64,000 bases of DNA from Thermoanaerobaculales bacterium (GTDB lineage Bacteria > Acidobacteriota > Thermoanaerobaculia > Thermoanaerobaculales > Sulfomarinibacteraceae), in the NCBI GenBank assembly GCA_025456145.1, contig JALOLD010000002.1:61549-125548 (forward strand), read 5' to 3'. The position numbers were made by a program, and so were the translations under genes. A model generated the notes under the pieces. That model made no database searches. It saw nothing but the letters and a program-made list of their open reading frames with translations, and was not told the origin of the DNA. Position 1 is the first letter of the stretch. Each line of letters begins with the position of its first letter. Shown one piece after another: positions 4,802 through 57,144 of the stretch.

Positions 4802-6427
4802 ATGGACACACAGTACGGATGGCTCCTCAACCTGATCTGTTACCTCCCGCTCGCGGGCGCCCTCCTCATGATCTTCTTCGTCGACAAGGAGAGCTCGCGC
4901 GCGGTCAAGCTCACCGCCACCGTTGTCGCCGCGGCCGACTTCGTGCTCTCGCTGCCCCTGTGGTTTCTCTACCGCACCGACGGCGCCGAGTTCCAGTTCG
5001 CCACCGAGGCGCAGTGGATCCCCTCGGTCGGCGTCCAGTACCTGTTCGGCGTCGACGGGTTCTCGATCCTGCTGATCCTCCTGACGACCCTGCTCGGCTT
5101 CATCTCGGTCTACAGCTCGTTCACCGCGATCACCCACCGTGAGAAGGAGTACTACATCTTCCTGCTGCTCCTGCAGACCGGGATGATCGGGGTGTTCTGC
5201 GCCCTCGACTTCGTCCTGTTCTACGTCTTCTGGGAGGTCATGCTGGTGCCGATGTACTTCCTCATCGGCGTCTGGGGCGGCCCCCGCAAGCTCTACGCGG
5301 CGATCAAGTTCTTCCTCTACACCCTGGTCGGCTCGGTGCTCATGCTGGTCGGCATCCTCGCCCTGTACTTCTTCAACGCCGGCGGGGTCGCGGCGATCGG
5401 CCTGACCGGTCTGGGCAACGAGGCGACGTTTTCGATCCCCCACCTCTACACCATCGCGTCGCAGATCCCGCCCGAGCTCCAGCTCTGGGTCTTCCTCGCC
5501 TTCTTCGTCGGCTTCGCGATCAAGGTGCCGATGTTCCCCTTCCACACCTGGCTGCCGGACGCCCACGTCGAGGCGCCGACCGCGGGATCGGTGATCCTGG
5601 CCGGCGTCCTGCTCAAGATGGGAACCTACGGCTTCGTCCGCTTCTCGCTGCCGCTGCTGCCCGACGCGACGGTCAGGGCGGTTCCCTGGATCGGGGCGCT
5701 GTCGATCATCGCCATCGTCTACGGCGCGCTCGTCGCGATGGCGCAGAAGGACATGAAGAAGCTCGTCGCCTACTCGTCGGTCAGCCACATGGGTTTCGTG
5801 ATGCTCGGGATGTTCGCCCTCAACGACCCGGGGCTGCGCGGCGCGATCCTCCAGATGCTCAACCACGGGGTCTCGACCGGCGCGCTCTTCCTGCTCGTCG
5901 GGATCGTCTACGAGCGGCGCCACAACCGGCTCATCGCGGAGTACGGCGGGATCGCCAAGGTCATGCCGCTGTATGCCACCTTCTTCCTGATCATCACGAT
6001 GTCGTCGATCGGCCTGCCGACCCTCAACGGCTTCATCGGCGAGTTCACCATCCTGATCGGCGCCTTCCACCACAGCTGGGTGTGGGCGCTGTTCGCCGCA
6101 TCGGGAATCGTGCTCGGCGCCGGCTACATGCTCTGGCTGTACCAGCGGGTCTTCTTCGGCGAGCTCGCCAACGAGAAGAACAAGGACCTCGCGGACCTCA
6201 ACCGCCGCGAGCAGTGGACGCTGATCCCGCTGATCGTCCTCGCCTTCTGGGTCGGGCTGTATCCGAAGCCGTTCTTCGACCGCATGCGACCGACGGTGGA
6301 CAACGTCATGAAACGGGTGGCGGTCGCCCTGCCCGAGGCCGGGATCGCGGCTCCGGGCGAGGCCTCGAGTGACGCCCCGGACGTGGCCGACCACGGCGAC
6401 GAGGCCCACCCGGAGCCCGGGGAGTAG
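4802..6427 (+). CDS. nuoM: NADH-quinone oxidoreductase subunit M
   Basis: 541-aa antiporter-like subunit (FPFHTWLPDAHVEAPTAGSVILAGVLLKMG). Confidence 0.95.
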   Translation: MDTQYGWLLNLICYLPLAGALLMIFFVDKESSRAVKLTATVVAAADFVLSLPLWFLYRTDGAEFQFATEAQWIPSVGVQYLFGVDGFSILLILLTTLLGFISVYSSFTAITHREKEYYIFLLLLQTGMIGVFCALDFVLFYVFWEVMLVPMYFLIGVWGGPRKLYAAIKFFLYTLVGSVLMLVGILALYFFNAGGVAAIGLTGLGNEATFSIPHLYTIASQIPPELQLWVFLAFFVGFAIKVPMFPFHTWLPDAHVEAPTAGSVILAGVLLKMGTYGFVRFSLPLLPDATVRAVPWIGALSIIAIVYGALVAMAQKDMKKLVAYSSVSHMGFVMLGMFALNDPGLRGAILQMLNHGVSTGALFLLVGIVYERRHNRLIAEYGGIAKVMPLYATFFLIITMSSIGLPTLNGFIGEFTILIGAFHHSWVWALFAASGIVLGAGYMLWLYQRVFFGELANEKNKDLADLNRREQWTLIPLIVLAFWVGLYPKPFFDRMRPTVDNVMKRVAVALPEAGIAAPGEASSDAPDVADHGDEAHPEPGE

Positions 6428-7894: not shown

Positions 7895-7916
7895 GCGGCG
7901 GGGACGGGGGTCGTCG

Positions 7917-36647: not shown

Positions 36648-36716
36648 CTCGGTTGCCGTCCCTTTCCGAACCATAGTACCATCCCGCGCGCAGCAGACAC
36701 ACTGCGCCCGAGACGA

Positions 36717-36728
36717 TATACATGTATA
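36717..36728. promoter_or_regulatory. Perfect 12-bp palindrome TATACATGTATA (candidate operator)
   Basis: Self-complementary and pure AT/CATG, in a GC-rich intergenic region between the divergent XRE operon and wzm. Overlaps the -10 element of the XRE promoter. Confidence 0.5.
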
Positions 36729-36754
36729 GTATGCAGCCGTCGCGTCCGCGTCAA
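36726..36754 (-). promoter_or_regulatory. Sigma70-type promoter of the XRE-TPR-secreted protein operon
   Basis: On the minus strand: TTGACG (36754-36749), 17-nt spacer, TACTAT (36731-36726). Confidence 0.5.
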
Positions 36755-36820
36755 GCTGCTCCGGGGTCCGATTCCCCGAAACGCCCGACGCGCCGACTCG
36801 CAATCCGCACCGGGAGATCC

Positions 36821-37660
36821 ATGCTGCGTTACCTGCTCGCCCCCGCACGGCTGGTGCGGACCCTGGCGACCCACCGTTTCCTGCTCGCCCAGCTCGCCTG
36901 GCGGGCCTTTGCGTCGCGTCACGCCGGGGCGGTCCTCGGCTGGCTGTGGACGCCGCTCGGGACCGCGGTCCAGTTCGCCCTCTACACCGTGGTCTTCTCG
37001 GTGATCCTCGAGATCAAGATCCCGCTGATGACTGGCACCGATCTTGCTGATCGCGTGCCCGTGGCGTTCGGCGTCTTCCTGATCACCGGCCTCGTGCCCT
37101 ACCTCGCTCTGAACGACGTGGTCCTGCGGACCTCGCGGGTGATCCGGGCCAACGCCACCCTGGTCCAGCGGGTCCGCCTGCCGCTCGAGGTTCTGGTGGT
37201 CGGCGATCTCCTCGGCACGCTGTTGCACCACCTCGCCGCGGTGGTGCTGATGATCGCCTACTGCGCCTGGTCCGGGGTGCTGGTCCTCGGCGGCGCCGGC
37301 TGGCTGGCGCTCGGGCTCGTCGTGCTGCTGGTGCTGGCGATCGGCGCCGGGCTGCTGGTCAGCATCCTCGGGGTCGCGCTGCCGGACATCCCCGAGGTCC
37401 TCGCCCTGCTGCTCCAGCTCGCGCTGTACGGCGCTCCGATCATCTACTCCCTGAGCTTCGTCCAGCCGGGCTGGCTGAGGATGCTCATCCAGGCCAACCC
37501 CGTGACGCCCCTGGTCGGCGTCTTTCGCGCCGGGCTGCTCGGCGTCGCGCCGCCGGCCGCCCCGTCCCTCGTGTACCTCGCCGCCGTCGCCGCCGTGCTT
37601 CTCGTCGTCGGCTCGGCGGCCCTCGACCGATACCGTATGACGATCCCCGATCTGCTGTGA
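36821..37660 (+). CDS. wzm: ABC-2 type polysaccharide/O-antigen exporter permease
   Basis: 279 aa, 6 TM. N-terminal LLAQLAWRAFASRHAGAVLGWLWTPLGTAVQFALYTVVF pattern typical of Wzm/TagG/KpsM permeases. ATG 36821 after a GGGAG SD. Confidence 0.82.
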   Translation: MLRYLLAPARLVRTLATHRFLLAQLAWRAFASRHAGAVLGWLWTPLGTAVQFALYTVVFSVILEIKIPLMTGTDLADRVPVAFGVFLITGLVPYLALNDVVLRTSRVIRANATLVQRVRLPLEVLVVGDLLGTLLHHLAAVVLMIAYCAWSGVLVLGGAGWLALGLVVLLVLAIGAGLLVSILGVALPDIPEVLALLLQLALYGAPIIYSLSFVQPGWLRMLIQANPVTPLVGVFRAGLLGVAPPAAPSLVYLAAVAAVLLVVGSAALDRYRMTIPDLL

Positions 37661-37688
37661 CGGTCGGGCGATCGATGGAGGAATCCAC

Positions 37689-39374
37689 ATGAACCGAGTG
37701 ATCCATTTTGCCGCGGCCGTCGCCTGCACCATCGCCGTCCAGGCCGGGGCACAGGTTCCAGAGCTCCCGGAGGTCGTGGCTCCCGGTCCCACCCCGACCC
37801 CCGCGTCGCCCATCGGCAGCTCCGAGCGAGCCCTCGCCACCGCGATGGGCGAGACCGAGATGGTCTGGACGCCCGAGCAGGGCACGAGGACCTGGGAGGA
37901 GTTCATCACCGACTGGCTGACGCCGCGCCAGGTCGAGAAGTCGATCGCCGTGCGGGTCGACGACACCTACGCCTATCCCCACCCGGCGGTGTCGATCAAG
38001 ATGGAGATCGTCAAGGAGGACGCGACCCACCTCTGGCTGCGCGGCATCCCGCCCGAGGACCCGGCGTCCCCGTTGCACAACATCTGGGCCAGGCGCCAGG
38101 CCGAGGAACGGCTGGTCAAGGACCGGATGGACTGGGAGCGCGAGCACGGCGACTACCACACCTGGGTCGACTTCGGCGCGGTCATCGTGCCGCCGCCCTT
38201 CGCCGACGTTCTCAGCCTCGAGCCCCACAACACCGGCCTGCCGCAGAGCGGGCTGTGGCAGATGAACTTCGTCATCGACGACGTCGATGACGACGGGATC
38301 GACGACCTCGTCGCGCCACCGGCGCGCAAGGGCGTCAGCCAGCCGGCGGTTTACAAGGGGCTGCCGGACGCGGGCTTCCGGCTGATGCGCGAGGCCGGCT
38401 GGCTGCGCGGCATCCCCTACGACTACGGAGGTGTGGCGACCGGAGACTTCGACGGCGACGGCCACCTCGACATCGTGCTGGCGATCCACTTCAAACAGCA
38501 GTTCGTGCTGTACGGCGACGGCAAGGGCGGCTTCCCGCGCAGCGACCGGCTGAGCGGGCCCGATCCGCGTTTGACATCGCGCGCCTGCACCGTGGCCGAC
38601 TTCAACGGCGACGGCCGCGAAGACCTGGCCTTCATCGCCGAGCTCGACGTCGACCTCGGCAACCAGCAGAGGATCGAGGACAAGTCGACGGTATGGGTCC
38701 AGCTGCGCACCGACAACGGCTGGCAGCTGGTCACCGAGGGTCTGCCGATCGTGCTGATCAGCGACGACATCGAGAGCGTCGACGTCGACCGCGACGGCCG
38801 GGTCGACCTGGTTGTCGGGTCGAACACCGCCGACTGGCGCAAGCTCGTCTTTCTCAACCGCGAGGACGGCTGGCAGGAGCAGTTCTCGCACGGCGTGCTG
38901 AGCAACGCCTACCACTTCGACGTCGAGCCGTTGGCGGTCGAGGGCGGCGACCTCGAGGTCTATGCCGCCTTCATGCAGTACCGCATGATCGACGGCAAGA
39001 ACACCGCGCGGACCGGCCTGCTCCGCTACCGCTGGACCGAGGACGGGCTGGTCGCCCCGACCGGGCCGATCTACTTCGACGACGACCGCACCAACCCCTA
39101 CGTCCGGGTCGGGGTCGGCGACCTCAACGGCGACGGCGTCACCGATCTCGTGTCGGGGCGCAAGCTCGGCGGGCTCGAGGCCTGGATCGGCAACGCCGAC
39201 GGCGGCTTCACCCTCGAGACCAGCCCCGAGCTGGTCGGACCGGGACGGGCCTTCGAGATCCAGCTCGCCGATCTCGACGGCGACGGCCGCGACGACATCC
39301 TCGCCGCGTTTGCCGAGGTCGAGGAGAAGCCGGGCGGGATCCGGCTCTGGCTCAGCCGGCCCGCGACCGAGTGA
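37689..39374 (+). CDS. Secreted FG-GAP/VCBS repeat protein
   Basis: Signal peptide MNRVIHFAAAVACTIAVQAGA. Five Ca-binding-type repeats: GDFDGDGHLDIV, ADFNGDGREDLAF, VDVDRDGRVDLVV, GDLNGDGVTDLV, ADLDGDGRDDIL. Lies 28 nt after wzm. Confidence 0.85.
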   Translation: MNRVIHFAAAVACTIAVQAGAQVPELPEVVAPGPTPTPASPIGSSERALATAMGETEMVWTPEQGTRTWEEFITDWLTPRQVEKSIAVRVDDTYAYPHPAVSIKMEIVKEDATHLWLRGIPPEDPASPLHNIWARRQAEERLVKDRMDWEREHGDYHTWVDFGAVIVPPPFADVLSLEPHNTGLPQSGLWQMNFVIDDVDDDGIDDLVAPPARKGVSQPAVYKGLPDAGFRLMREAGWLRGIPYDYGGVATGDFDGDGHLDIVLAIHFKQQFVLYGDGKGGFPRSDRLSGPDPRLTSRACTVADFNGDGREDLAFIAELDVDLGNQQRIEDKSTVWVQLRTDNGWQLVTEGLPIVLISDDIESVDVDRDGRVDLVVGSNTADWRKLVFLNREDGWQEQFSHGVLSNAYHFDVEPLAVEGGDLEVYAAFMQYRMIDGKNTARTGLLRYRWTEDGLVAPTGPIYFDDDRTNPYVRVGVGDLNGDGVTDLVSGRKLGGLEAWIGNADGGFTLETSPELVGPGRAFEIQLADLDGDGRDDILAAFAEVEEKPGGIRLWLSRPATE

Positions 39375-39378
39375 CGGC

Positions 39379-39408
39379 TTGACATTCGCCCCGGATCGGC
39401 TCGATAAT
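39379..39408 (+). promoter_or_regulatory. Upstream tandem promoter candidate for the 502-aa gene
   Basis: TTGACA (39379-39384), 18-nt spacer, GATAAT (39403-39408). Confidence 0.4.
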
Positions 39409-39437
39409 GACCGACGGTGGGGAAACGCCTTCAGCTA

Positions 39438-39467
39438 TTGACAGACGAGCGGCATCGGTGCTATATT
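39438..39467 (+). promoter_or_regulatory. Near-consensus sigma70 promoter for the 502-aa gene
   Basis: TTGACA (39438-39443), 18-nt spacer, TATATT (39462-39467). Followed by an AT-rich leader of about 150 nt and a GGAAGGAG SD (39608-39615). Confidence 0.6.
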
Positions 39468-39622
39468 TTATGCTGTGATGACATAAAGATGAGCTAAAAG
39501 CTTGAAGGAAAAATACTTAAACAGGAGGTGATGCGAAAGAGACGGAGCAGGTGAGGGGCCCTGGAAGGGGCCGCGAAACCGGAAGTACTTTGGCAATGTA
39601 TTCGAATGGAAGGAGCTGAGTA

Positions 39623-41131
39623 ATGAAAAGATTCGTGACTCTCGCGCTGGTTGGCGCGCTGGTCCTGGGCGCAAGCAGCATCGTGTACGCGAATGTCTGC
39701 GCCTTCGACGTTGCGCCGGCCGCGACCATCCTGTTCCCCTTCGTGACCCTCGACTACAATAATCCGACGTCGGGTCTGAGCACCACCTTCTCGATCACCA
39801 ACGTGTCGGCCGAGGCCCAGGTGGTCCACGTGACCGTGTGGACCGACTTCTCGGCGGCGATCCTCGACTTCAACATCCTGCTCACCGGCTACGATGTGAT
39901 CTCGATGAACATCCGCGACATCCTCGTCAACGGCCAGCTCCCCGTCACCAAGAACGAGGCGCACAGCGGCAACGAGGGTGTGTCGGTCAACGGCCCGGTG
40001 TCGTTCGGCAACCAGCTCAACGGCTCCTGGCTCAACCCGGGCATCGACGATCCGCAGCCGACCTCCGACCTCGGCGCCCGCTGCAACAGCTCGAACTCCT
40101 CGTACCCCGGCCTGTACGCGTCCCCGATCCCGCCGGGCTTCCTCGGCCTGTTCCAGGGTTATCTGCAGGTCAGCCAGACCGTCGACCGGCTGCACAGCAA
40201 CGACTGCGTGAAGTCGTTCGGCGACGCGTACGAGCTCACCCCGACCCCCTACTGGGCCGAGCGTGACACCACCTACCCGACCTGGATGTACATCACCGCC
40301 GACGTGGTCGAGAACTGCAACAAGCTGTTCCCCGACTCCCCTGGCTACTTCAGCCAGGAGGCGCGGATGGACAACGTCCTGATCGGCGACGTGTTCTGGA
40401 CCTCGACCGTTGACCGGCTCTCCGAGGCCAACAACGCGGTCCACCTCGAGGCCTCGATGAACCTCGACGCCGTCGCCACCATCGCCCCGACCGGCTTCCC
40501 GGTCTCCTTCTACCACCGCTACGCGGTGCTCAACGACGGCGTCTCCGACTACCGCGAGCCGCTGCCGACCGCGTGGGCCTTCCGCTACCTCGGCGCCGGC
40601 GTTGCCGGTATCGATACCGACGTCCAGGTGTGGAAGGGCTCGAGCGCCTACGCCTTCACCTATGACCTCGACCGCAACGGCGCCAACCAGGTGTCGCCGG
40701 ACGAGCTCGTCGCCTCGAACTGCCACGCCTACACCTACTATGCGTGGGACGAGGACGAGATGGTCACCACCGTGACCTCGGTGCCGTGGTCGATGCCGGG
40801 CGGCGAGTCGGTCATCCCGAACCTCATCCCGCTCGAGACCCAGTCGATCCCGGTCGACCAGTTCGACACCCCGGGCGCCTACGGCTGGATGCTCTTCGTG
40901 TGGCCGGCCTCGAACTACCCGCCGAACGCCACCAACGAGCCCGATGACTTCTATCAGACCTGGATGGGCGTCCGCTACGAGGCGAACACCCAGTGGTCGG
41001 CCGAGCGTGACGCCGCCGTCATGGGCAACTGGAACTGCTTCAGCGACCAGTACCTGCCGCTCCTGGGCATCAACTACCAGTATGTTGATCCCACCGGCTA
41101 CGTGACCTCTCCGGGCGCTCCGGTCAACTAA
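39623..41131 (+). CDS. Orphan secreted acidic protein (502 aa), candidate abundant surface/structural protein
   Basis: Signal peptide MKRFVTLALVGALVLGASSIVYA. The mature part is rich in N/T/S/Y/W/P/D, with about 5 Lys and 6 Cys. Third-position GC is high. Bracketed by strong promoter(s) and a strong terminator. No family recognised. Confidence 0.85.
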   Translation: MKRFVTLALVGALVLGASSIVYANVCAFDVAPAATILFPFVTLDYNNPTSGLSTTFSITNVSAEAQVVHVTVWTDFSAAILDFNILLTGYDVISMNIRDILVNGQLPVTKNEAHSGNEGVSVNGPVSFGNQLNGSWLNPGIDDPQPTSDLGARCNSSNSSYPGLYASPIPPGFLGLFQGYLQVSQTVDRLHSNDCVKSFGDAYELTPTPYWAERDTTYPTWMYITADVVENCNKLFPDSPGYFSQEARMDNVLIGDVFWTSTVDRLSEANNAVHLEASMNLDAVATIAPTGFPVSFYHRYAVLNDGVSDYREPLPTAWAFRYLGAGVAGIDTDVQVWKGSSAYAFTYDLDRNGANQVSPDELVASNCHAYTYYAWDEDEMVTTVTSVPWSMPGGESVIPNLIPLETQSIPVDQFDTPGAYGWMLFVWPASNYPPNATNEPDDFYQTWMGVRYEANTQWSAERDAAVMGNWNCFSDQYLPLLGINYQYVDPTGYVTSPGAPVN

Positions 41132-41152
41132 GCGACCCAACCGTGCGATCCA

Positions 41153-41181
41153 GAGGCGGCCTTCGGGCCGCCTCTTTTTTT
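41153..41181 (+). terminator. Strong Rho-independent terminator
   Basis: GAGGCGGCC (41153-41161), loop TTCG, GGCCGCCTC (41166-41174), T7 (41175-41181). Confidence 0.88.
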
Positions 41182-41526
41182 GCCGGTCGCCCGCGTCGAC
41201 TGGACGAGAGACCGGCGCCTTCCTCCTCATCGGAATGACCCGATGCCGACCTCGGACGATCGCCCGGTGGGACCCCGGGTGAGGTGGCGACCGGAGACCC
41301 GGCCGGGGGCACAACCGCACATGTCAAGAACGTAAAAGGCCGGTCAACCACCCACACCGGGGTGGACAGTCGATCGCCGTTTGGTCATACTCTCAGCCGC
41401 GCTGCGGCAGGGGAGGGCGGGCGAAGCGTCGAGCTGCCGGTCCCGACCCCCTCGTGACCCGGGTCACAGCTCGGAGTGATCGGCTAAGTATCTGAAAAAG
41501 ATCGGGCTAATGTTAGAATTGTCGTG

Positions 41527-41556
41527 TTGACAGCGTCAAATTCCGTTGCCTATAGT
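41527..41556 (+). promoter_or_regulatory. Near-consensus sigma70 promoter for the giant gene
   Basis: TTGACA (41527-41532), 18-nt spacer, TATAGT (41551-41556). GGAGG SD at 41565-41569, ATG at 41577. Confidence 0.6.
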
Positions 41557-41576
41557 GGACCCGTGGAGGTGACCTC

Positions 41577-44500
41577 ATGATCCGACCTCTCGCGACCCGT
41601 ACCCCGGTGGTATCCGCCTTCGCGGTCGTCGCGTTTGCCGTCGCGCTGCTGCCGGCCGGCGACGCCGCTGCCCAGGGCTGCTTCGAGCACGTTCGAAACC
41701 TCAACTACTCGCCGACCAACTGCGAGGCCCTGCCGACCATCGACCGGGTGTTCCGGATCCAGGAGATCCGCTGGAAGGGGCACGACTACCTCTTCGTCGA
41801 CGAGGGCAACGAGATCGCGATCTTCAACATCGACGACCCCACCGACCCGGACAACCTGACGACCTCCAACTTCAACATCCCCAACGTCGGCGACTCAGAC
41901 TACGACCTCATCAACTTCTCGGTGTGCGACGACTGCCGGTACGGGATCGCCAACTACAAGGCGGCGACGGTGCTCTTCGACCTCGGGACCGGGGCGCTCC
42001 CCGGCTTTGCCGCCTCGAGCAAGAACTTCGACGCCAACCTCATCCAGGGCGGCTACACCTTCTCCTACGGCAGCCAGCAGTACCTGGTCGCGGCGAGCCT
42101 CGGGACGGCGCCCTGCCCGAACAACAAGTCGGGGCTCTACCTGTTCAACGGGATCGCCGAGGCCGGCAACCCGGTCATCCAGTGCCTCGACAACGGCGGC
42201 AGCGGGCCGGAGATCCAGAACGGGCTCCGGGTCGAGGGGACCGACCCGCCGGTGATCTACATGTCCGAGCGCTTCGGCCAGTTCCGGATCTACCGGGCTC
42301 ACACCAGCCCGACCTTCGGTCTCGACTACCTGGGCAACGGCGGTATCTCGACCGCCAACATGACCCGCGGCTACGGCGCCGCGGTCGATGCGAGCGCCGG
42401 GCTGCTCGCGGTCGCCAACGCCGGCGTGCTCAAGATCTACGACATCGGCTGGGGCAACGGGACCCCGGCGACCCCATCGCAGCTGTCGAGCAAGACCCTG
42501 ACCGGGCTGGCGAGCGCCAACGCGGTCGGGCTGCGCTACCCGATCGTCCACGTCGCCCAGCGCAACGCGACGGTCGAGCCGCAGACCTTCGACGTCTCGA
42601 CGCCGACCAACCCGGTGTCCCTCGACCAGGACTTCTGGGACCCGTCCAACCCGTGGAACGCCCTCGGAAGCTGCCTGTGGAACCAGCACGTGGTCTTCTC
42701 CGACGACGGCGCCGCGATGTACCTTTCGCGCTACAGCTCGCTCCAGGTCATCGACCCGACCGCCTGTTCGGGGCCGATCCAGCCGATCGCCAACCTCAGC
42801 ATGAGCCCGCAGCCGGCCTTCCCCGGCGACCAGCTGACCGTGACCAACACCTCGGTCGGCGGCGAGCGTTGGGCTCGCTGGATCACCGACGGCTCGAGCC
42901 CGCACGGCAGCACGGTTCTCGCCGGTTCGACGAGCCTGACCACCAGCAACCTGCCGCTGGTCTACACCCTGCCGATCGACATGACGACGACCGACGTCTT
43001 CTACGCCCACGCCGCGGTCGAGACCGACGAGTACCCCTACGTCCCCGGCTCGACCCCCGAGCAGATCAAGACCCAGCAGGTGTCGATCAACCGCACGCCG
43101 ACCGCGACGATCAGCGTCACCCCGCAGGCGGCGATCACCGGCGACACCGTCACCCTGACCGCGGGCGCCCAGGGCCATCCCGGGGGTGCCGTCCCTTTTG
43201 AGTGGATGGTCACCGGTCCGACGGGGTCGACCCCCTACACGGGCAACCCGGTGACCGGCGTCGTGCTCGGCGAGAGCGGGCAGTGGACCTTCGCGGTCGA
43301 CGTCAACTACCAGCACATCGTCGGCGGCAACCCCTACACCTACTCCACCCAGCTGGTCCGCGACATCTCGTCGGTGGCGGCGGACTTCACGATCTCGCCG
43401 GCGGCGCCCAAGCACAACGAGCTCATCACGCTCACCAGCACCTCGCGGGCCCAGACCGGGGCGGTGCTGACCTTCGACTGGGACGTGCTGACCCCGGCCG
43501 GCGCGCTAGTCCACGAGCTCGCCTTCTGCGACGGCGCGGGCCCGGTCAACGACCAGTGCCAGATCCCCGCCGAGACCCTGACCTGGGACACCTATGACAT
43601 CCGCCTGACGCTGACCAACAGCGTTCCCGACCCGGACGACGTCAGCGTCAAGCTCGCCGAGGACGTCGTGGTGGCCAACGGCAACATCCAGGTCGACTTC
43701 ACCTGGGCGCCGACCAGCCCCGAGATCGGCACCTGGATCGGCTTCCAGGTCACCGGGGTCTCGGCTCAGGACATCGAGCGGTCGGAGTGGACCTTCGGCG
43801 GCACCGGGTGCGACGGCACCACCACCTACACCTGCGTCGAGCCGCACTTCCCGAGCTGCAACGAGGCCGCCTTCGCCTACGCGAGCGGCGGGCAGAAGAC
43901 GGTACGGCTCACCGTCACGACGACCGGCGGGATCGCCCAACCTCAGGTGAGCCACGTCGTGTCGGTGAGCAACACCGGCTCGTGCAGCGGCACGCCGACC
44001 TGCACCTACTCGATCAGCCCGACCTCGCGGACCTTCACCTCGGCGGGAGGCACCGGCACGATCTCGGTGAGCACCCAGACGGGCTGCAGCTGGACGGCGA
44101 GCGAGGGCGTACCATGGATCTCGATCACGGCGGGATCGAGCGGCAGCGGCTCGGGGACCGTGACCTACCAGGTCGCCGAGAACACCGGCCAGCAGCGCAC
44201 GGCCCAGATCACCGCCGCCGGCAAGACCCACACCGTCACCCAGGAGGCAGGGATCGTCTGCCAGTACTGGCTGACCACCCAGGGCAAGGTCTTCGACCCC
44301 TCGGGAGGGGCCGGCAGCTTCACCATCAACGCCTCGGACGAGAGCTGCACCTGGCAGGCGACGAGCACGGTCGGCTGGATCTCGGTGAGCACGCCGAGCG
44401 GCAGCGGGCCGGGTACCATCAACTACAACGTCGCCGAGAACAACACCCCGCACCAGCGCGAGGGGATCATCCGGGTCACCGGCCAGAGCAGCTTCACCGA

Positions 44501-47183
44501 CGACTACACGGTGACCCAGAACCACCCCTGGATCCCGGTCGACATCGAGATCTCGAAGATCAACCCCGAGATCGGCGAGACCGTCACCCTGACGGTCGAC
44601 GAGCGGCTCGAGGTGACGGGCTGGGATCTGACCTCGGAGGACTGCCAGGAGAACTCGCCGATCATCACCTGTCCCGGCACCGCCGGGACCTGCAACGAGA
44701 TCGAGTGGGCCTGGGCCGACTCGGGTCTCAAGGAGATCACCGTCGAGACCACCTCGGGCAGCCAGTCGAAGGGGGTCACGGTCAAGACCACCGGCGAGTG
44801 CCCGCCCTTCTGCGGCAAGGACGGCCCGCCCGAGGCGTCGTTCGTCATCAGCCCGAGCCCGGCCAACGAGGACGAGGAGGTGAGCTTCACCGACACCTCG
44901 TCGGGCGGCGGTCTCAAGGTCCTCGCGACCGGCCTCGGCTGGACGCCGACGAGCCCCGAGATCGGCGAGCTCACGACCTTCACGATCACCGGCCACACGG
45001 GCGACATCCGCGCCGAGTGGGACTTCGGCGAGAACGGCTGCTCGGGTTTCCCGCAGATCCAGGTCTGCGAGCCCTTCTTCGGCAACTGCCACGACATGGG
45101 CTTCAAGTTCGCCTCGGCCGGCGACAAGACCGTCTCGGTGACGGTCAAGAACCCGGCGACCGGCGCCGTGCTCGGCTCGACGACCCGAACGGTGACGGTG
45201 CAGAGCACGGGCAGCTGCGGTGGTACGCCGACCTGCACCTACAGCCTCAACCCGGCGAGCTGGAGCTTCCCGGCCACCGGGGGCAGCCTGAGCTTCGCGG
45301 TCAACACCCAGGCCGGCTGCACCTGGAACGCGACCACCGCCAACCCGTGGATCACCCTGAACAGCCCCACCAGCGGCACCGGGTCGGGCACGGTGAGCTA
45401 TGACGTCGCCGCCAACGCGGGCGAGGCGCGCTCGGGCGCGATCTCGGTCAAGAGCCAGACCCACAGCGTCTTCCAGCTCGGTGGTGGCGGTGGAGGCGGC
45501 GGTGGCGGTGGCGGCGGTGGTGGAGGCGGCGGTGGTGGTGGCGGCGGTGGCGGCGACACATCGCCCACCGAGTGGCTGTGGACCGTCCGTCTCGGCTCGC
45601 AGGTCATCGTCACCTCGACCGAGCAGGACTTCACCCACGTCTTCCGCGACCCCGGCTTCTACCAGGTCGAGCTGATCGCCTCGAACTGCGCCGGGTCGGA
45701 CACCGCGACCCAGACGCTGGAGATCATCGATGTCGAGGAGCCCGCGCCCGACGTCTTCCTCGTGCCCTCGGCGGTGCACACGCCGGGTCTCAACCAGACC
45801 CTGTGGAAGACCGACCTGCGGATCTTCAACCCGGGGAGCGACCAGGTGATGGTCGACATCGAGTATCTACCCGAGAACACTAACAATAACCAGGGGGTCA
45901 TTCACGGCCTGAGCCGGATCGTCGCGCCGAGCGGGACCCTGGTGATCGACGACATCGTCGAGGCGATCCCCGGCATCCAGGGCGACGACAACAAGGGATC
46001 GCTGCGGTTCGTCTACGGCGAGGGGGTCGAGGTCACGCCCTTGATCATGTCGAGGACGTACAACGATACCCCCAACGGGACGTTCGGCCAGTTCGTCAAG
46101 GCGGTCCCGGTCCAGGAGAGCGAGCAGGACTTCCTGCTGCTCACCGGGCTCGCCGAGAACCTCTACTCGCGGACCAACCTGAGCCTCGCCAACCTCACCG
46201 ACCGCTATGCGAGCGGGATCACGATCCGGGTGCTCAGCGACGCCGGCGAGATCATCGGCGACCCGGTGGTGATCGGCGTCCTGCCGCACAGCACGACCCA
46301 GGTCGTCAAGATCGCCGAGGCGGCCGGGATCTTCACCGACCTCGACATCTTCTCGCTCTACATCTTCACCAACGGCCACGACGTCTCGGCGAGCGCATCG
46401 GTCGTCGACAACGCGACCGGCGACCCGGTCCACGTCGAGTCCGTCGGCCAGGACGGCGAGATGGCTTGGCTGCCCGGGGTCGCCCGGCTGGCCGGCGCCA
46501 ACGACTCGAACTGGCGCTCCGACGTCACGTTCTTCAACGACACCGTCGATCCGACGTCGACGAAGATCAGGTACTACTCATCCGAGAGCGGACAGATCGG
46601 AATCCCGTGGATGAACCTCGGGCTGCCGTCGGCCAACGCGGCCTTCTTCGCCGACCTGCTCGGCAGCTCGATGCTGCCCTCGGGGGTCGAGTCCAAGGGC
46701 TATCTCGTGATGACCAGCAACGACGGCTCGCCGCTGCCCCAGGTCGTCGCCAGGACCTACAACGTCGACGTCCACGGCGGGACCTTCGGTCAGAACCTCA
46801 AGCTCTTCTGCGAGACCGACCTCATCGCGGCCGGCCAGTCCGGCTTCATCGCGGGGGTGTCGAACTCCGCCGACAGCGGTCTCGGCTTCCGGACCAACGT
46901 CGGGGTGCTCAACGTCAGCGACGAGACCCCGGCAGTGGTCGAGATCTCGATCTACAACACCGAGGGTGAGCGGGTCGGCCGGATCCCGGGGTTCAACGTC
47001 GGGCCGGGGGTCTTCATCCAGGAGAACGTCTTCCAGTTCGCCTATCTCGCCAACGTCACGATGGACGGCTCGATCGAGGTCAAGGTCCTGTCGGGGGGCC
47101 CGGTGGCGGCCTACGCCTCGGTGGTCGACAACCGAACCCAGGACCCGATCCTCATCCCGGCGGTCGTGGTCGACGTCCAGTAG
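41577..47183 (+). CDS. Giant secreted multidomain protein (1868 aa): propeller + PKD-like + BACON-like modules + poly-Gly tether + tandem uncharacterised C-terminal domains
   Basis: Signal peptide. N-terminal ~400 aa carry LVIVD-like repeats (IAIFNIDDPTDP, LKIYDIG, LQVIDPTAC). PKD-like modules follow. Three Cys-bracketed BACON-like modules (C-T-Y-S..GG.G...V.T..C.W.A....WI......G.G.V.Y.V..N...R). Then 25 consecutive Gly, another PKD-like module, and two ~240-aa repeats. Confidence 0.9.
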   Translation: MIRPLATRTPVVSAFAVVAFAVALLPAGDAAAQGCFEHVRNLNYSPTNCEALPTIDRVFRIQEIRWKGHDYLFVDEGNEIAIFNIDDPTDPDNLTTSNFNIPNVGDSDYDLINFSVCDDCRYGIANYKAATVLFDLGTGALPGFAASSKNFDANLIQGGYTFSYGSQQYLVAASLGTAPCPNNKSGLYLFNGIAEAGNPVIQCLDNGGSGPEIQNGLRVEGTDPPVIYMSERFGQFRIYRAHTSPTFGLDYLGNGGISTANMTRGYGAAVDASAGLLAVANAGVLKIYDIGWGNGTPATPSQLSSKTLTGLASANAVGLRYPIVHVAQRNATVEPQTFDVSTPTNPVSLDQDFWDPSNPWNALGSCLWNQHVVFSDDGAAMYLSRYSSLQVIDPTACSGPIQPIANLSMSPQPAFPGDQLTVTNTSVGGERWARWITDGSSPHGSTVLAGSTSLTTSNLPLVYTLPIDMTTTDVFYAHAAVETDEYPYVPGSTPEQIKTQQVSINRTPTATISVTPQAAITGDTVTLTAGAQGHPGGAVPFEWMVTGPTGSTPYTGNPVTGVVLGESGQWTFAVDVNYQHIVGGNPYTYSTQLVRDISSVAADFTISPAAPKHNELITLTSTSRAQTGAVLTFDWDVLTPAGALVHELAFCDGAGPVNDQCQIPAETLTWDTYDIRLTLTNSVPDPDDVSVKLAEDVVVANGNIQVDFTWAPTSPEIGTWIGFQVTGVSAQDIERSEWTFGGTGCDGTTTYTCVEPHFPSCNEAAFAYASGGQKTVRLTVTTTGGIAQPQVSHVVSVSNTGSCSGTPTCTYSISPTSRTFTSAGGTGTISVSTQTGCSWTASEGVPWISITAGSSGSGSGTVTYQVAENTGQQRTAQITAAGKTHTVTQEAGIVCQYWLTTQGKVFDPSGGAGSFTINASDESCTWQATSTVGWISVSTPSGSGPGTINYNVAENNTPHQREGIIRVTGQSSFTDDYTVTQNHPWIPVDIEISKINPEIGETVTLTVDERLEVTGWDLTSEDCQENSPIITCPGTAGTCNEIEWAWADSGLKEITVETTSGSQSKGVTVKTTGECPPFCGKDGPPEASFVISPSPANEDEEVSFTDTSSGGGLKVLATGLGWTPTSPEIGELTTFTITGHTGDIRAEWDFGENGCSGFPQIQVCEPFFGNCHDMGFKFASAGDKTVSVTVKNPATGAVLGSTTRTVTVQSTGSCGGTPTCTYSLNPASWSFPATGGSLSFAVNTQAGCTWNATTANPWITLNSPTSGTGSGTVSYDVAANAGEARSGAISVKSQTHSVFQLGGGGGGGGGGGGGGGGGGGGGGGGGDTSPTEWLWTVRLGSQVIVTSTEQDFTHVFRDPGFYQVELIASNCAGSDTATQTLEIIDVEEPAPDVFLVPSAVHTPGLNQTLWKTDLRIFNPGSDQVMVDIEYLPENTNNNQGVIHGLSRIVAPSGTLVIDDIVEAIPGIQGDDNKGSLRFVYGEGVEVTPLIMSRTYNDTPNGTFGQFVKAVPVQESEQDFLLLTGLAENLYSRTNLSLANLTDRYASGITIRVLSDAGEIIGDPVVIGVLPHSTTQVVKIAEAAGIFTDLDIFSLYIFTNGHDVSASASVVDNATGDPVHVESVGQDGEMAWLPGVARLAGANDSNWRSDVTFFNDTVDPTSTKIRYYSSESGQIGIPWMNLGLPSANAAFFADLLGSSMLPSGVESKGYLVMTSNDGSPLPQVVARTYNVDVHGGTFGQNLKLFCETDLIAAGQSGFIAGVSNSADSGLGFRTNVGVLNVSDETPAVVEISIYNTEGERVGRIPGFNVGPGVFIQENVFQFAYLANVTMDGSIEVKVLSGGPVAAYASVVDNRTQDPILIPAVVVDVQ
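45480..45554 (+). repeat. (GGN)25 trinucleotide tract encoding 25 consecutive glycines
   Basis: Read directly: ggt ggt ggc ggt gga ggc ggc ggt ggc ggt ggc ggc ggt ggt gga ggc ggc ggt ggt ggt ggc ggc ggt ggc ggc. In frame with 41577 (residues 1302-1326). Confidence 0.97.
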
Positions 47184-47209
47184 GTCCGAGGACCGGGTTG
47201 AAGCAACGC

Positions 47210-47235
47210 GACGGGCGGCCCCAGGGCCGCCCGTC
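47210..47235. terminator. GC-rich hairpin between convergent genes
   Basis: GACGGGCGGCC (47210-47220), loop CCAG, GGCCGCCCGTC (47225-47235). Weak U-tract on both strands. Confidence 0.45.
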
Positions 47236-47264
47236 GATCTTCCTGCTCTCGACTATGGCGCTTC

Positions 47265-48089
47265 TTACTCGACCTCGCCGGCGTCGAGACGCTCGGCCTC
47301 GGCGGGGTTGAAGAACAGCGAGCGGTCGAGGGGTCCCGCCGAGAGGTAGCTCAGCTTGGTCACCCGGACGTGACCGGTGGGCAGGCCCTCGAGGTCGATG
47401 CCGTCGAGCAGCACCTGGGTGGGCAGGCTGACGCCGTCGACGTCCTGCCGCCCGAGGACGCGGTAGCGGATCCCCTCGGCGCGGACCTCACGAAGGTCGG
47501 GGGCCGGCAGGTACTCGGCCCCGAGCACCAGGTGGTCGGTGCGGCCGATGAAGACCTTCCAGGTGGTGACCATGCTCGGCGCGGCGAAGAAGTCGGCGTC
47601 GAAGCCGATCTCGAGGACCCAGGCCGGCGTCCCGTCGAAGCTGCCCTCGGTGACGGCGCCGAGCTCGACCCCCGGCATCCCGAGCGAGAACGGCATGAGC
47701 AGCGGGAACAGGGTCTGGCGGATCGTCCCGCCGGCCATCCGGGGCGTCTGGGGACGGCTGTCGAGCTCGCCGCGGATCATCGCCCAGCCGTCGCCGTTGT
47801 CGAGGGCCAGGCTGACCCCGCCGTCGAGCTCGAGCCGGATGCTGTCGAGCCGGCGGCCGTGGAAGATCGCGGTGAGGTCGCGGACCTGGGCGGTGCCGTC
47901 GGACGCGGTCTCCTCCTGGCGGATGGCGGCGCGGATCATGTCGTGCTGGTCCATCGTCGTCGCGGTCTCGGCGGCCGCGACGGCGCGGCTGACGAGCTCC
48001 TCCGCCGAGGGGGCGGCGGCCGCCGCCTGGCCGGCGACGACCACGAGCCCGACGGTGAGCGAGAGCGCGGTGGTGCGTGAGATCATCAT
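47265..48089 (-). CDS. Secreted hypothetical protein, LolA/outer-membrane-lipoprotein-sorting-like (tentative)
   Basis: 274 aa. Signal peptide MMISRTTALSLTVGLVVVAGQAAAA. All-beta-looking sequence. AAGGAG SD. The family assignment is by general resemblance only. Confidence 0.55.
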   Translation of the reverse strand: MMISRTTALSLTVGLVVVAGQAAAAAPSAEELVSRAVAAAETATTMDQHDMIRAAIRQEETASDGTAQVRDLTAIFHGRRLDSIRLELDGGVSLALDNGDGWAMIRGELDSRPQTPRMAGGTIRQTLFPLLMPFSLGMPGVELGAVTEGSFDGTPAWVLEIGFDADFFAAPSMVTTWKVFIGRTDHLVLGAEYLPAPDLREVRAEGIRYRVLGRQDVDGVSLPTQVLLDGIDLEGLPTGHVRVTKLSYLSAGPLDRSLFFNPAEAERLDAGEVE

Positions 48090-48140
48090 CGTCTCCTTGT
48101 GCGGACGGGATGCCCGGGGTCGCCCGGGCCGATGGCGGCC

Positions 48141-48146
48141 ATTATA
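48141..48146 (-). promoter_or_regulatory. Perfect TATAAT -10 box upstream of the LolA-like gene
   Basis: Plus-strand ATTATA, equal to minus-strand TATAAT, about 52 nt upstream of ATG 48089. No convincing -35 element. Confidence 0.35.
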
Positions 48147-48246
48147 GGGTCAAACCGGGGACCGCCCCGGGTCGCGTTACAGGGTGTTTACAGCCGCCGC
48201 GACGTCTCACCGGTCCGGCCTCCGATGTGGTATCTTTCGGCCCGTC

Positions 48247-49467
48247 ATGGCTTTGGACCCAAACCGGCCGGCGATCAGCGTGCACGACGTGCACAAGTGG
48301 TACCGGGTCTACGCCTCGCCGACCGAGCGGATCAAGCGGGTGGTCGGGCGGCGCAGCCGTCACCTCGACGTCCAGGCCCTCGACCGGGTGAGCTTCGCGG
48401 TCGCGCCGGGCACGGCGGTCGGGATCATCGGCGAGAACGGCGCCGGCAAGTCGACCCTGATGAAGATCATCGCCGGCACGACGACGCCGACCGCCGGGCA
48501 GATCGAGGTCCAGGGAACGGTGGCCGCGATCCTCGAGCTCGGCGCGGCCTTCCACCCCGAGTTCTCGGGTCGCGACAACGCGGTCCTCTACGGCGCCCTG
48601 ATGGGGCTCGAGCGGCACGACATGGAGGCCCGGCTCGCGCGGATCTTCGACTTCGCCGAGCTCGGCGAGTTCATCGACCACCCGGTCAAGAGCTACTCGA
48701 CCGGGATGGCGATGCGGCTCGCCTTCGCCGTGGCCACTCATGTCGAGCCGGACGTGCTGGTCGTCGACGAGGCGCTCGCGGTCGGCGACGGCTACTTCCA
48801 GAAGAAGTGCGTCGACACGATCCGCGAGATCAAGGACCGGGGGACGACGATCGTCTTCTGCTCGCACGCCATGTACTACGTGACGAGCTTCTGCGACCGC
48901 GCGATCTGGCTCGCCGGCGGCCGGGTCGAGCGCGACGGTCCCTCCAAGGAGGTGGTCGAGGCCTACGAGGCCCATCTCCAGCTCCGGGACATCCGCCGGA
49001 TCGGCGGCGGCGCCGCGACGGTCGTCCCCGACCGCGTGCCCTCCACCCAGGGCCGACGGGTCGGCCGGATCACGGCGGTCCGCCCGGGCGGTCGGTCGAC
49101 GGAGCTGCCCCTGACCCTCTCGGCCGGCGACGAGCTGGCCGTCGAGATCGAGCTCCAGAGCACCGATCCCGCCGAGCCCTACCACCTCGGCGTCGCCCTC
49201 GACACCCTCGACGGCCGCTGCGTTCTCGCCGCCTCGACCAAGCGCGACGGCGAGCCGCCGCTGTGCGGCGCCGAGCGCTACCGCGTCCGCTTCGTCGTGC
49301 CGTCGTTGCCGATCGCCGCCGGGCTCTTCCACGTCTACGTCTTCCTTCTCGACGAGAGCGGGCTCCACAACCACGACCAGGTGATCCTCACCGAGGCGGT
49401 GCGCTTCAACTCCCCGGAGTGGACGCCGTCGCTGATCGAGGTCGGCCGGCGCTGGGAGCACCGGTGA
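48247..49467 (+). CDS. wzt: Polysaccharide/O-antigen ABC exporter ATPase with C-terminal Wzt-type extension
   Basis: Walker A GENGAGKST, signature YSTGMAMRLAF, Walker B VLVVDEALAVGD. A ~160-aa beta-rich C-terminal domain follows (GRITAVRPGG...LAVEIELQS...FHVYVFLLDE), as in carbohydrate-binding Wzt proteins. Confidence 0.9.
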   Translation: MALDPNRPAISVHDVHKWYRVYASPTERIKRVVGRRSRHLDVQALDRVSFAVAPGTAVGIIGENGAGKSTLMKIIAGTTTPTAGQIEVQGTVAAILELGAAFHPEFSGRDNAVLYGALMGLERHDMEARLARIFDFAELGEFIDHPVKSYSTGMAMRLAFAVATHVEPDVLVVDEALAVGDGYFQKKCVDTIREIKDRGTTIVFCSHAMYYVTSFCDRAIWLAGGRVERDGPSKEVVEAYEAHLQLRDIRRIGGGAATVVPDRVPSTQGRRVGRITAVRPGGRSTELPLTLSAGDELAVEIELQSTDPAEPYHLGVALDTLDGRCVLAASTKRDGEPPLCGAERYRVRFVVPSLPIAAGLFHVYVFLLDESGLHNHDQVILTEAVRFNSPEWTPSLIEVGRRWEHR

Positions 49468-57038: not shown

Positions 57039-57144
57039 GGTCTCCCCTCCAGTCGCAGCGATCCTCAGGATACCCCGCCGTCGCCCCGGCGTACAAGCTC
57101 GACGGGGAGGCGGTGCGCGGCCGTGAAACGGCTACAATCCCGTC

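Follow-up and report, generated by a model that had tools for sequence, protein, structure and literature searches.

The gene and its glycine tract

A stretch of 64,000 nucleotides from a Thermoanaerobaculales bacterium (assembly GCA_025456145.1, contig JALOLD010000002.1, positions 61,549 to 125,548 of the forward strand) was analyzed, and the whole of this 64-kb stretch is referred to below as the window. On its forward strand lies a gene for a putatively secreted multi-domain protein of 1,868 amino acids (aa), within which a (GGN)25 tract encodes 25 consecutive glycines at residues 1302-1326 (Table 1). A codon count confirmed the extent of the tract given in a preliminary description of the window: all 25 residues are Gly, encoded by 12 GGC, 11 GGT, two GGA, and no GGG codons. 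Codons 1-12 read GGT GGT GGC GGT GGA GGC GGC GGT GGC GGT GGC GGC, and codons 13-25 read GGT GGT GGA GGC GGC GGT GGT GGT GGC GGC GGT GGC GGC.

The reading frame is real, as its G+C content at third codon positions (GC3) is 0.95, in a window of 70% G+C, and it has many homologues. Because glycine has a frequency of only 0.10 in the remaining protein, about 2e-22 runs of 25 Gly would be expected by chance, and no further homopolymer run of at least eight residues was found in any frame of the window. On the opposite strand the tract reads as Pro25 within an open reading frame (ORF) of 78 aa. As the preliminary description had held, this ORF is a spurious mirror of the coding frame and no gene; the homologues and the coding codon bias belong to the forward frame.

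The N-terminus, 'MIRPLATRTPVVSAFAVVAFAVALLPAGDAAAQ', resembles a Sec signal peptide when read by eye and is conserved among homologues. It ends in the cleavage-type motif 'AAAQ', of which A-x-A-Q is kept in homologues, and the same stretch was modeled by AlphaFold as a single helix of low predicted local distance difference test (pLDDT) score. Export of the protein by the Sec pathway is accordingly predicted from its N-terminal sequence. Lipoprotein anchoring through a Cys after the signal peptide was considered and rejected, as the motif A-x-A-Q followed by 0-4 residues and Cys is, in our own reading, not a lipobox.

Domain architecture and a split PKD domain

An AlphaFold model of residues 1-449 contained a seven-bladed beta-propeller (pLDDT 85), for which Foldseek returned matches to RACK1, G-beta, and LGI1-EPTP with a probability of 1.0 and template modeling (TM) scores of 0.63-0.71. 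The propeller region had no Pfam match. Only BACON and PKD domains were found by Pfam in the whole protein, and NCBIfam returned no match to its 1,868 residues. The BACON domain (PF13004) scored 45.2 bits, against a gathering cut-off of 25, and was matched in three stretches. The BACON domain next to the tract (28.1 bits, residues 1249-1299, window 45321-45473) ends two residues before it.

The PKD domain that follows the tract was matched incompletely (PF00801 / PF18911): the score was 34.8 bits, against a cut-off of 23.5, and only profile positions 26-78 of 80 were covered. When residues 1080-1112 from upstream of the tract were joined to residues 1327-1389, the PKD_4 profile matched with 49.7 bits over positions 3-83 of 85, compared to 35.7 bits over positions 32-83 for the C-terminal part alone, and the PKD profile matched the joined segments with 42.7 bits over positions 5-79 of 80. 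In a control, the native segment composed of BACON, Gly25, and the C-terminal part gave no extension of the PKD match. At the sequence level, this PKD domain is therefore split in two. The same domain was uninterrupted, as 'FIDTSTGAGPNAPTDWLWTIRKG', in the homologues P0047, P0050, L030, L047, and L050, and was also contiguous in L045. A MAFFT alignment with P0047 and P0050 placed an insertion of ~190 residues plus the Gly run of the window protein in a loop of the PKD domain.

The 189 inserted residues, which comprise a PKD-like domain and a BACON domain, arose by duplication of a cassette within the protein, as they were 45% identical to its residues 710-889 over 181 aa (BLASTP, E 1e-37). The two parts of the junction also occurred apart from each other in homologues: this BACON cassette precedes a different domain in P0067, and the PKD domain with the C-terminal module follows other domains in P0047 and P0050.

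Judged by these matches, the tract lies between modules predicted to fold independently, with BACON extending to residue 1299 and the strands of the PKD domain starting from residue 1327. From the profiles, the B-C loop of the PKD domain, whose two parts would probably fold together, contains a nested insertion of two domains, and the tract is best described as the return arm of this insertion. As the return arm of an insertion inside a split domain, the tract would not be the sole tether between the two halves of the protein.

The preliminary description had presented the tract as a flexible tether that separates a propeller/PKD/BACON half from a C-terminal half. The positions of the flanks were right and the tract is a Gly-only inter-domain connector, but it is not a plain link between two halves, as it sits inside a split PKD domain and closes an insertion. 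An end-to-end tether from the N-terminal half to an independent C-terminal half, the length of which would vary among cells or strains and tune surface display, seems unlikely. The tract is indeed flanked by matches to BACON and PKD, the protein combines a predicted signal peptide with BACON domains that may bind glycans, and its gene is located between wzm and wzt in a polysaccharide export cluster, all of which would suit a surface tether. However, the PKD domain after the tract lacks the first 25 profile positions, these were found 190 residues upstream, and the joined match is full-length; if the domain refolds, the halves would be joined through it and not through the tract. Additionally, no anchoring signal was identified in the 1,868-aa protein.

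Tract length among homologues

Homologues were gathered through two protein searches and by scanning species-representative genomes. The family was found in metagenome-assembled genomes (MAGs) of Acidobacteriota, namely Thermoanaerobaculia/Thermoanaerobaculales, Candidatus Sulfomarinibacteraceae, and Holophagae, and one match was named Candidatus Sulfomarinibacter. The homologues shared a junction motif in which the BACON end '..H.V.Q' is followed by Gn and then by 'DT.PTEW.W(T)'. The flanks are conserved, while the length and sequence between them vary.

Homologous tracts were present in more than 20 other genomes, with runs ranging from G6 to G25, and the G25 of the window was the longest at this junction. 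Orthologues of 67-79% aa identity contained G17, 22, 19, 18, 23, 17, 23, 21, 13, 22, and 21, and a frameshifted copy (L004/P0037) contained about G15. All 11 orthologues of at least 67% aa identity, as well as L004/P0037, thus had at least 13 Gly. Runs of G9-G13 were found in Holophagae-type relatives (~50% identity) and runs of G19, G13, and G6 in other relatives, while the most distant homologues had an 11-residue linker of the 'GADQGNTAPTA' type and no Gly run. A linker therefore occupied the junction in all homologues, and the universal absence of any linker from orthologues, which the preliminary description had allowed for, was clearly not observed.

Differences in length were also found between close relatives, for example G13 against G22 and G11 against G13, both at 92% nucleotide (nt) identity, and G9 against G11 at 87% aa identity. 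In contrast, assemblies of at least 99.8% nt identity all had G25, although these were few. A metagenome scan with the C-terminal region returned two loci only, with 73% (G22) and 69% (G21) identity, and no near-identical contigs. The exact protein was absent from a collection clustered at 90% identity, which thus gave no length variants. The tract is real and conserved across related species, and its length drifts between species. The length variability expected in the preliminary description was thereby borne out between species (G6-G25), whereas none was seen among near-identical assemblies and variation at the strain level is unsupported. For a tether that tunes surface display, the differences among species would be favorable and the equal length of near-identical assemblies, despite their accumulated substitutions, unfavorable.

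Agreement among independent assemblies

The identical 1,868-aa protein was encoded on an NCBI MAG contig (GCA_025490995.1) and in the JGI metagenome samples 3300037524 and 3300037458, and three of the four contigs with the identical protein were inspected. These three differed from the window at two to three positions over 10-11.6 kb, and all in-gene differences among the near-identical contigs were synonymous changes of third codon positions. One single-nucleotide polymorphism (SNP), 45542 C>A, changes GGC to GGA inside the tract, and a second, at 45560, lies 6 nt past it. At least three independently assembled haplotypes were distinguished, each of which had 25 codons. Since independent assemblies with different SNP haplotypes gave the same length, the tract is not an assembly artefact.

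A collapse or expansion of the low-complexity sequence during assembly or sequencing is therefore extremely improbable as an explanation of the tract. The observations that would speak for it came from other contigs: nanopore-style MAGs (contig_NNN) had frameshifts in (L004) or at the edge of (L008, L048) the homologous tract, and a contig from a third JGI sample (L084) stops ~200 nt downstream of the tract, not at the tract itself. Against it, besides the agreement in length, the reading frame was preserved, and more than 20 homologous tracts were recovered at the same codon position by SPAdes, MEGAHIT, and long-read assemblies. The frameshifted long-read assemblies also contained in-frame stops and other frameshifts close by, so the tract was not shown to be specially error-prone.

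Of the risk of collapse or sequencing error noted in the preliminary description, the collapse was not observed, while the risk of sequencing error at the tract is real for the nanopore platform. Because the frameshifts fall in or at the tract, the orthologue is divided by gene callers into two to three ORFs. For example, P0037 is a split gene call that starts with 'MAG11DTTPTEW', with 11 Gly after MA.

The distribution of the SNPs was also uneven. Over 11.6 kb the NCBI MAG contig departed from the window at three positions, two of which (45542 and 45560) lay within 19 nt, and the same two changes were the sole differences in one JGI contig, from another sample. Such clustering might stem from a mutation rate that is raised locally, or from a small event of repair or slippage.

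Codon composition and DNA structure of the tracts

The tract of the window includes an imperfect duplication of 30 nt, in which codons 3-12 are repeated as codons 13-22. Tandem Repeats Finder (TRF) reported a period of 30 with 2.1 copies and 96% match, and a period of 3 with 23.3 copies and 79% match, the longest perfect period-3 stretch being 11 nt. Other tracts were more regular in places, such as (GGC GGT)x9 in L007 and (GGC)x7 in L006. The tendency to in-frame slippage ascribed to the tract in the preliminary description is consistent with such internal micro-duplications, and established knowledge of triplet repeats suggests that the tracts grow and shrink through replication slippage or small duplications.

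Among 20 tracts, 314 codons were counted, comprising 177 GGC, 125 GGT, seven GGA, and five GGG. GGG made up 1.6% of the tract codons, compared to 21% (205 of 978) of those outside the tracts in the same genes (Fisher P 4e-21). In the window gene alone, GGG was 0 of 25 inside the tract against 51 of 186 outside (P 9e-4), and GGT was enriched fivefold, with 11 of 25 against 15 of 186 (P 2e-5). As a consequence of this codon choice, a G-run longer than 2 was absent from 15 of the 20 tracts, including that of the window. The first and second positions were unchanged in all 314 codons while third positions were mixed, and no tract was interrupted by a non-Gly codon.

The G-rich coding strand was predicted to form an imperfect hairpin of the CGG type (-16.7 kcal/mol, z -4.5). 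Folding of the C-rich DNA strand gave no structure, and the mRNA of the tract with its flanks was unremarkable (z = 0.07). A G-quadruplex in the window tract was ruled out, as its longest G-run is 2 and it contains no GGG.

These patterns bear on whether the tract is a functionless microsatellite, tolerated in a permissive loop, with a length set by mutation-drift balance only. This is possible but rather doubtful. As it would predict, lengths spread widely over 0 to 25 without an evident optimum, the tract is missing from distant homologues, and signatures of slippage are present. Against it, more than 314 codons from more than 20 species included no change to Ser, Ala, Asp, Val, Cys, or Arg while their third positions diverged, GGG and GGA were strongly depleted relative to the same genes, and at least 13 Gly were kept in all 11 orthologues of at least 67% aa identity and in L004/P0037. 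The purity, the codon depletion, and the retained length suggest constraint on glycine identity and against frameshift-prone G-homopolymers, part of which fast turnover could mimic.

A proposed origin of the tract

Taken together, the tract is probably a slippage-generated, Gly-constrained, flexible poly-Gly connector that closes a nested cassette insertion in a Sec-secreted Thermoanaerobaculia protein. The host is a marine-sediment acidobacterium of the Thermoanaerobaculia, similar to Candidatus Sulfomarinibacter, and the predicted architecture of its protein runs from a beta-propeller through PKD-like plus BACON repeats and a PKD domain to two beta-sandwich modules. A 189-residue cassette, copied from residues 710-889, would have entered the B-C loop of the last PKD domain. 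The chain would then exit this domain past strand B by way of the short arm 'SGGGLKVLATG', build the two inserted domains, and re-enter strand C through L-Gly25-DTSPTE. As glycine has no side chain, such a return arm would be maximally flexible, presumably disordered, and structurally neutral, so that the host domain could close wherever BACON ends and the inserted binding cassette may swing.

Slippage during replication, or small duplications, would lengthen and shorten the underlying (GGY)n microsatellite while keeping it in frame, and its length would therefore drift between species. In the window, the 30-nt duplication may have taken the tract from about 15 to 25 codons. Two constraints would act on this process: all codons stay Gly, and codons ending in G or A are avoided, so that no G-run longer than 2 would arise in the window tract. 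The reason for the avoidance of GGG may lie in the frameshift-prone nature of such runs.

Several points weigh against this explanation. Reassembly of the PKD domain is deduced from sequence profiles and from its collinearity with contiguous homologues. Homologues of the P0020 group share the insertion with a return linker of 11 residues, and a long Gly arm is thus not required by the architecture. The length of the tract in this clade may represent a mutational equilibrium rather than an adaptation, and rapid slippage turnover, rather than selection for Gly, could have produced or contributed to the purity of the tracts. Additionally, flexibility is assumed from chemistry, and polyglycine can also collapse or form polyglycine II (PGII) helices.

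The C-terminal module and other poly-Gly junctions

The 542 residues after the tract were modeled by AlphaFold as an all-beta chain of beta-sandwiches (pLDDT 86.6). The two tandem modules that follow the PKD domain in this stretch were matched by no Pfam or NCBIfam model. Comparison of the model with the PDB returned weak, generic matches to multi-beta-sandwich proteins (alpha-2-macroglobulin and similar), with TM scores of at most 0.17 over the query. In species-representative genomes, 148 stretches related to the C-terminal module were found, and in other Acidobacteriota the module was fused to a subtilase (P0047), an M4 metalloprotease (P0113), and PAE esterases (P0107, P0114). It looks like an undescribed, widespread domain family.

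The closest N-terminal homologues (P0002-P0006, P0009, and P0013-P0019) shared the propeller, PKD, and BACON domains at 53-64% identity. Their C-terminal half was wholly different, starting with 'GPDDGTVENGYGWG...' and continuing with repeats. As close N-terminal homologues have other C-terminal halves, the family appears to shuffle its C-terminal modules. One of these homologues, P0019, shares its contig with a true orthologue (P0038/L005).

Across 862 kb of retrieved loci, every (GGN) run of at least eight codons fell within this protein family, where poly-Gly occurred at three kinds of junction: a Cys-flanked site before BACON, the junction studied here, and a site after the C-terminal module. 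The first of these, ~1.5 kb upstream of the studied junction, has the form 'TGSC-Gn-C.Y' between PKD-like and BACON domains, with G5-G17 between the two Cys residues, and was carried by P0007, P0020, P0023, P0028, and P0041 and by L013, L018, L023, L040, and L044. If the flanking Cys residues were joined by a disulfide, the Gly run would become a closed loop. In the window protein, 'SCSGTPTC' or 'SCGGTPTC' takes the place of the Gly run at this site. At the third kind of junction, a paralogous protein from a Thermoanaerobaculia MAG (L078 7378-7473, CAZXMW010000029.1) has G32 after its C-terminal module, in the context '...NCASS-G32-ACVAVAFPAPGRQV', and another homologue has G11 at the same place (L068 3028-3060). 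In some homologues, Pro/Thr-rich stretches take the place of poly-Gly, such as 'SCDGPTTPTPTPTPPPTSVTC' in P0008. Given its recurrence at three kinds of junction, poly-Gly is a habit of the family and not a one-off.

Genomic neighborhood

The gene is located between wzm-like and wzt-like genes of an ABC-type polysaccharide export cluster (36677-49467). Between these two, three genes for putatively exported proteins encode an FG-GAP protein, a protein of 502 aa with no annotation, and the giant protein, and they are followed by a small gene on the reverse strand. The order of FG-GAP protein, unknown protein, giant protein, small reverse gene, and ABC ATPase was kept in the orthologous locus L005. 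Besides the FG-GAP protein, two unannotated proteins belong to the neighborhood, as do GT4 glycosyltransferases and a cytidylyltransferase. Judged from this gene context, a role at the cell surface tied to an exported polysaccharide is plausible.

Farther downstream, and unrelated to the tract, positions 57127-60012 of the window encode a 961-aa fusion of an FAD-linked oxidase with 4Fe-4S dicluster and CCG cysteine-rich domains, which resembles glycolate or D-lactate dehydrogenase.

Table 1. Features of the locus and of homologous tracts, in window positions unless another contig is named.
Feature	Position	Strand	Basis
ABC-2 permease, Wzm-like	36677-37660		
Gene for the 1,868-aa, putatively secreted multi-domain protein with the Gly tract	41577..47183	+	GC3; exact protein on other contigs; full-length Acidobacteriota homologues
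Putative Sec signal peptide, residues 1-33	41577..41675	+	Read from sequence; homologue N-termini agree
Seven-bladed beta-propeller, about residues 35-400	41679..42776	+	AlphaFold, Foldseek
Upstream PKD-like + BACON cassette, residues 710-889, paralogous source of the insert	43704..44243	+	BLASTP, BACON Pfam matches
N-terminal third of the split PKD, residues 1084-1112 ('PPEASFVISPSPANEDEEVSFTDTSSGGG'), strands A-B	44826..44912	+	Joined-profile match, collinearity
Nested insertion, residues 1113-1301: PKD-like 'WDFGENGC' domain + BACON	44913..45479	+	Alignment gap, Pfam, BLASTP
Spurious antisense ORF, 78 aa, tract read as Pro25	45398..45634	-	Mirror of coding frame
(GGN)25 tract, Gly25, residues 1302-1326	45480..45554	+	Sequence, codon counts
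C-terminal two-thirds of the split PKD, residues 1327-1389 ('DTSPTEWLWTV...')	45555..45743	+	Pfam, confidently modeled strands
Two tandem all-beta modules, ~230 aa each, ending 'VVDNxT.DP'	45744..47180	+	AlphaFold
Wzt-like ATPase	48148-49467		
Frameshift inside homologous tract, in GGCGGGGGGC run	L004 4820-4875		Long-read MAG
Frameshifts at edge of homologous tract	L005/L008 ~7900-7915 and ~5930-5945; L048 ~5920-5940		Long-read MAGs

Comparison with known linkers and repeats

By its position between modules, its homopolymeric composition, and its variation in length among orthologues, the tract would be classified as a low-complexity inter-domain linker. In function, the tract comes closest to Pro/Thr-rich linkers and to the polyserine linkers found in modular carbohydrases from Saccharophagus degradans, Cellvibrio japonicus, and Teredinibacter (Howard et al. 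2004, cited in PMC2386152). Like these polyserine linkers of secreted proteins, the tract is a homopolymeric, low-complexity connector of small residues between independently folding modules, in a bacterial protein that is predicted to be secreted and has putative glycan-binding domains. The polyserine linkers, however, consist of Ser, belong to Gammaproteobacteria, and occur in a quarter of the carbohydrases, whereas the tract consists of Gly and is found in one protein family of Acidobacteriota. Unlike in those carbohydrases, the window protein had no identified catalytic domain, and the tract closes a nested insertion while polyserine joins consecutive modules.

In chemistry, the closest case is the natural, uninterrupted polyglycine of ChitA, a class IV chitinase of maize. 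It links the binding domain of this secreted protein to a further domain and is known mainly as the target of secreted fungal polyglycine hydrolases, which cut it at Gly-Gly bonds (PMC9912923). The ChitA linker is from a plant and much shorter, giving cleavage products of up to Gly6 (PMC9912923), and no link to such a protease was seen at the tract. By analogy with this precedent, the tract might be a processing site at which a Gly-Gly endopeptidase (lysostaphin/M23-type or polyglycine-hydrolase-like) opens the protein or releases part of it, which is very unlikely. No M23 or other Gly-Gly endopeptidase was found among ~20 neighboring ORFs scanned, homologues without a Gly run keep the same architecture, and a cut in the return loop would release nothing if the PKD domain stays folded.

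The topology of the tract is similar to that of domain-insertion fusions with engineered (Gly)n or (G4S)n arms, in which a surface loop of the host domain accommodates a domain cassette. The insertion at the tract differs in being natural and two domains long, with a 25-residue homopolymer as its return arm and a host domain that presumably reassembles. The Pro/Thr-rich (PT) linkers of bacterial cellulases have the same role and the same position between modules. PT linkers are extended, semi-rigid, and often glycosylated; poly-Gly, unlike them, has no side chains.

The tract also shares with contingency loci a tandem DNA repeat of short units in the gene of a secreted or surface protein, the length of which can change by slippage. 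Unlike in contingency loci, nothing is switched on or off, since the 3-nt repeat unit is a codon and all natural length variants stay in frame; frameshifts occurred only in error-prone long-read assemblies. An assignment of the tract as a contingency or phase-variable locus was rejected on account of this in-frame unit and the impurity of the DNA repeat (79%, longest perfect stretch 11 nt), and also of the absence of length polymorphism in the small sample of assemblies at least 99.8% identical.

A search of the literature on natural bacterial polyglycine linkers and on Sulfomarinibacter returned nothing that describes this protein family, and the literature on the term 'polyglycine linker' was almost entirely on engineered constructs, plus the short linker of maize ChitA. 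Natural homopolymeric Gly linkers of this length are thus hardly documented. The rarity ascribed to long Gly runs in the preliminary description has to be qualified, since within the family they recur at three kinds of junction and reach G32. What is new is a homopolymeric linker made of Gly, in Acidobacteriota and in a nested topology; the linker class itself is known.

Implications

The tract reveals no new kind of biological system. It provides a comparative series of a single junction in more than 20 species, with lengths of 0 to 25. Such a series could be used to follow the evolution of linker length by slippage where amino-acid identity is constrained, and it bears on why GGG and GGA are left out of long Gly runs. 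The case also illustrates the nesting of a two-domain cassette in a small Ig-like domain. On the practical side, the orthologue is broken up by gene callers at the tract in MAGs from long reads, annotation can be misled by the antisense Pro25 ORF, and the unannotated C-terminal module, with its 148 related stretches, merits the definition of a family.

A bolder proposal, which at present is improbable, is that selection maintains the G13-G32 tracts as a lineage-specific linker system, which serves the giant exported proteins of Thermoanaerobaculia and Holophagae. Pure Gly, encoded by pure GGY, would then be kept since a thread without side chains does what a mixed linker cannot. Such a thread would pass through or lodge in a narrow channel of the outer membrane with part of the protein displayed, while the C-terminal beta-sandwich module would stay with the polysaccharide export machinery encoded by the flanking genes. 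Alternatively, it would serve as a protease-proof entropic spring, the reach of which is tuned by slippage.

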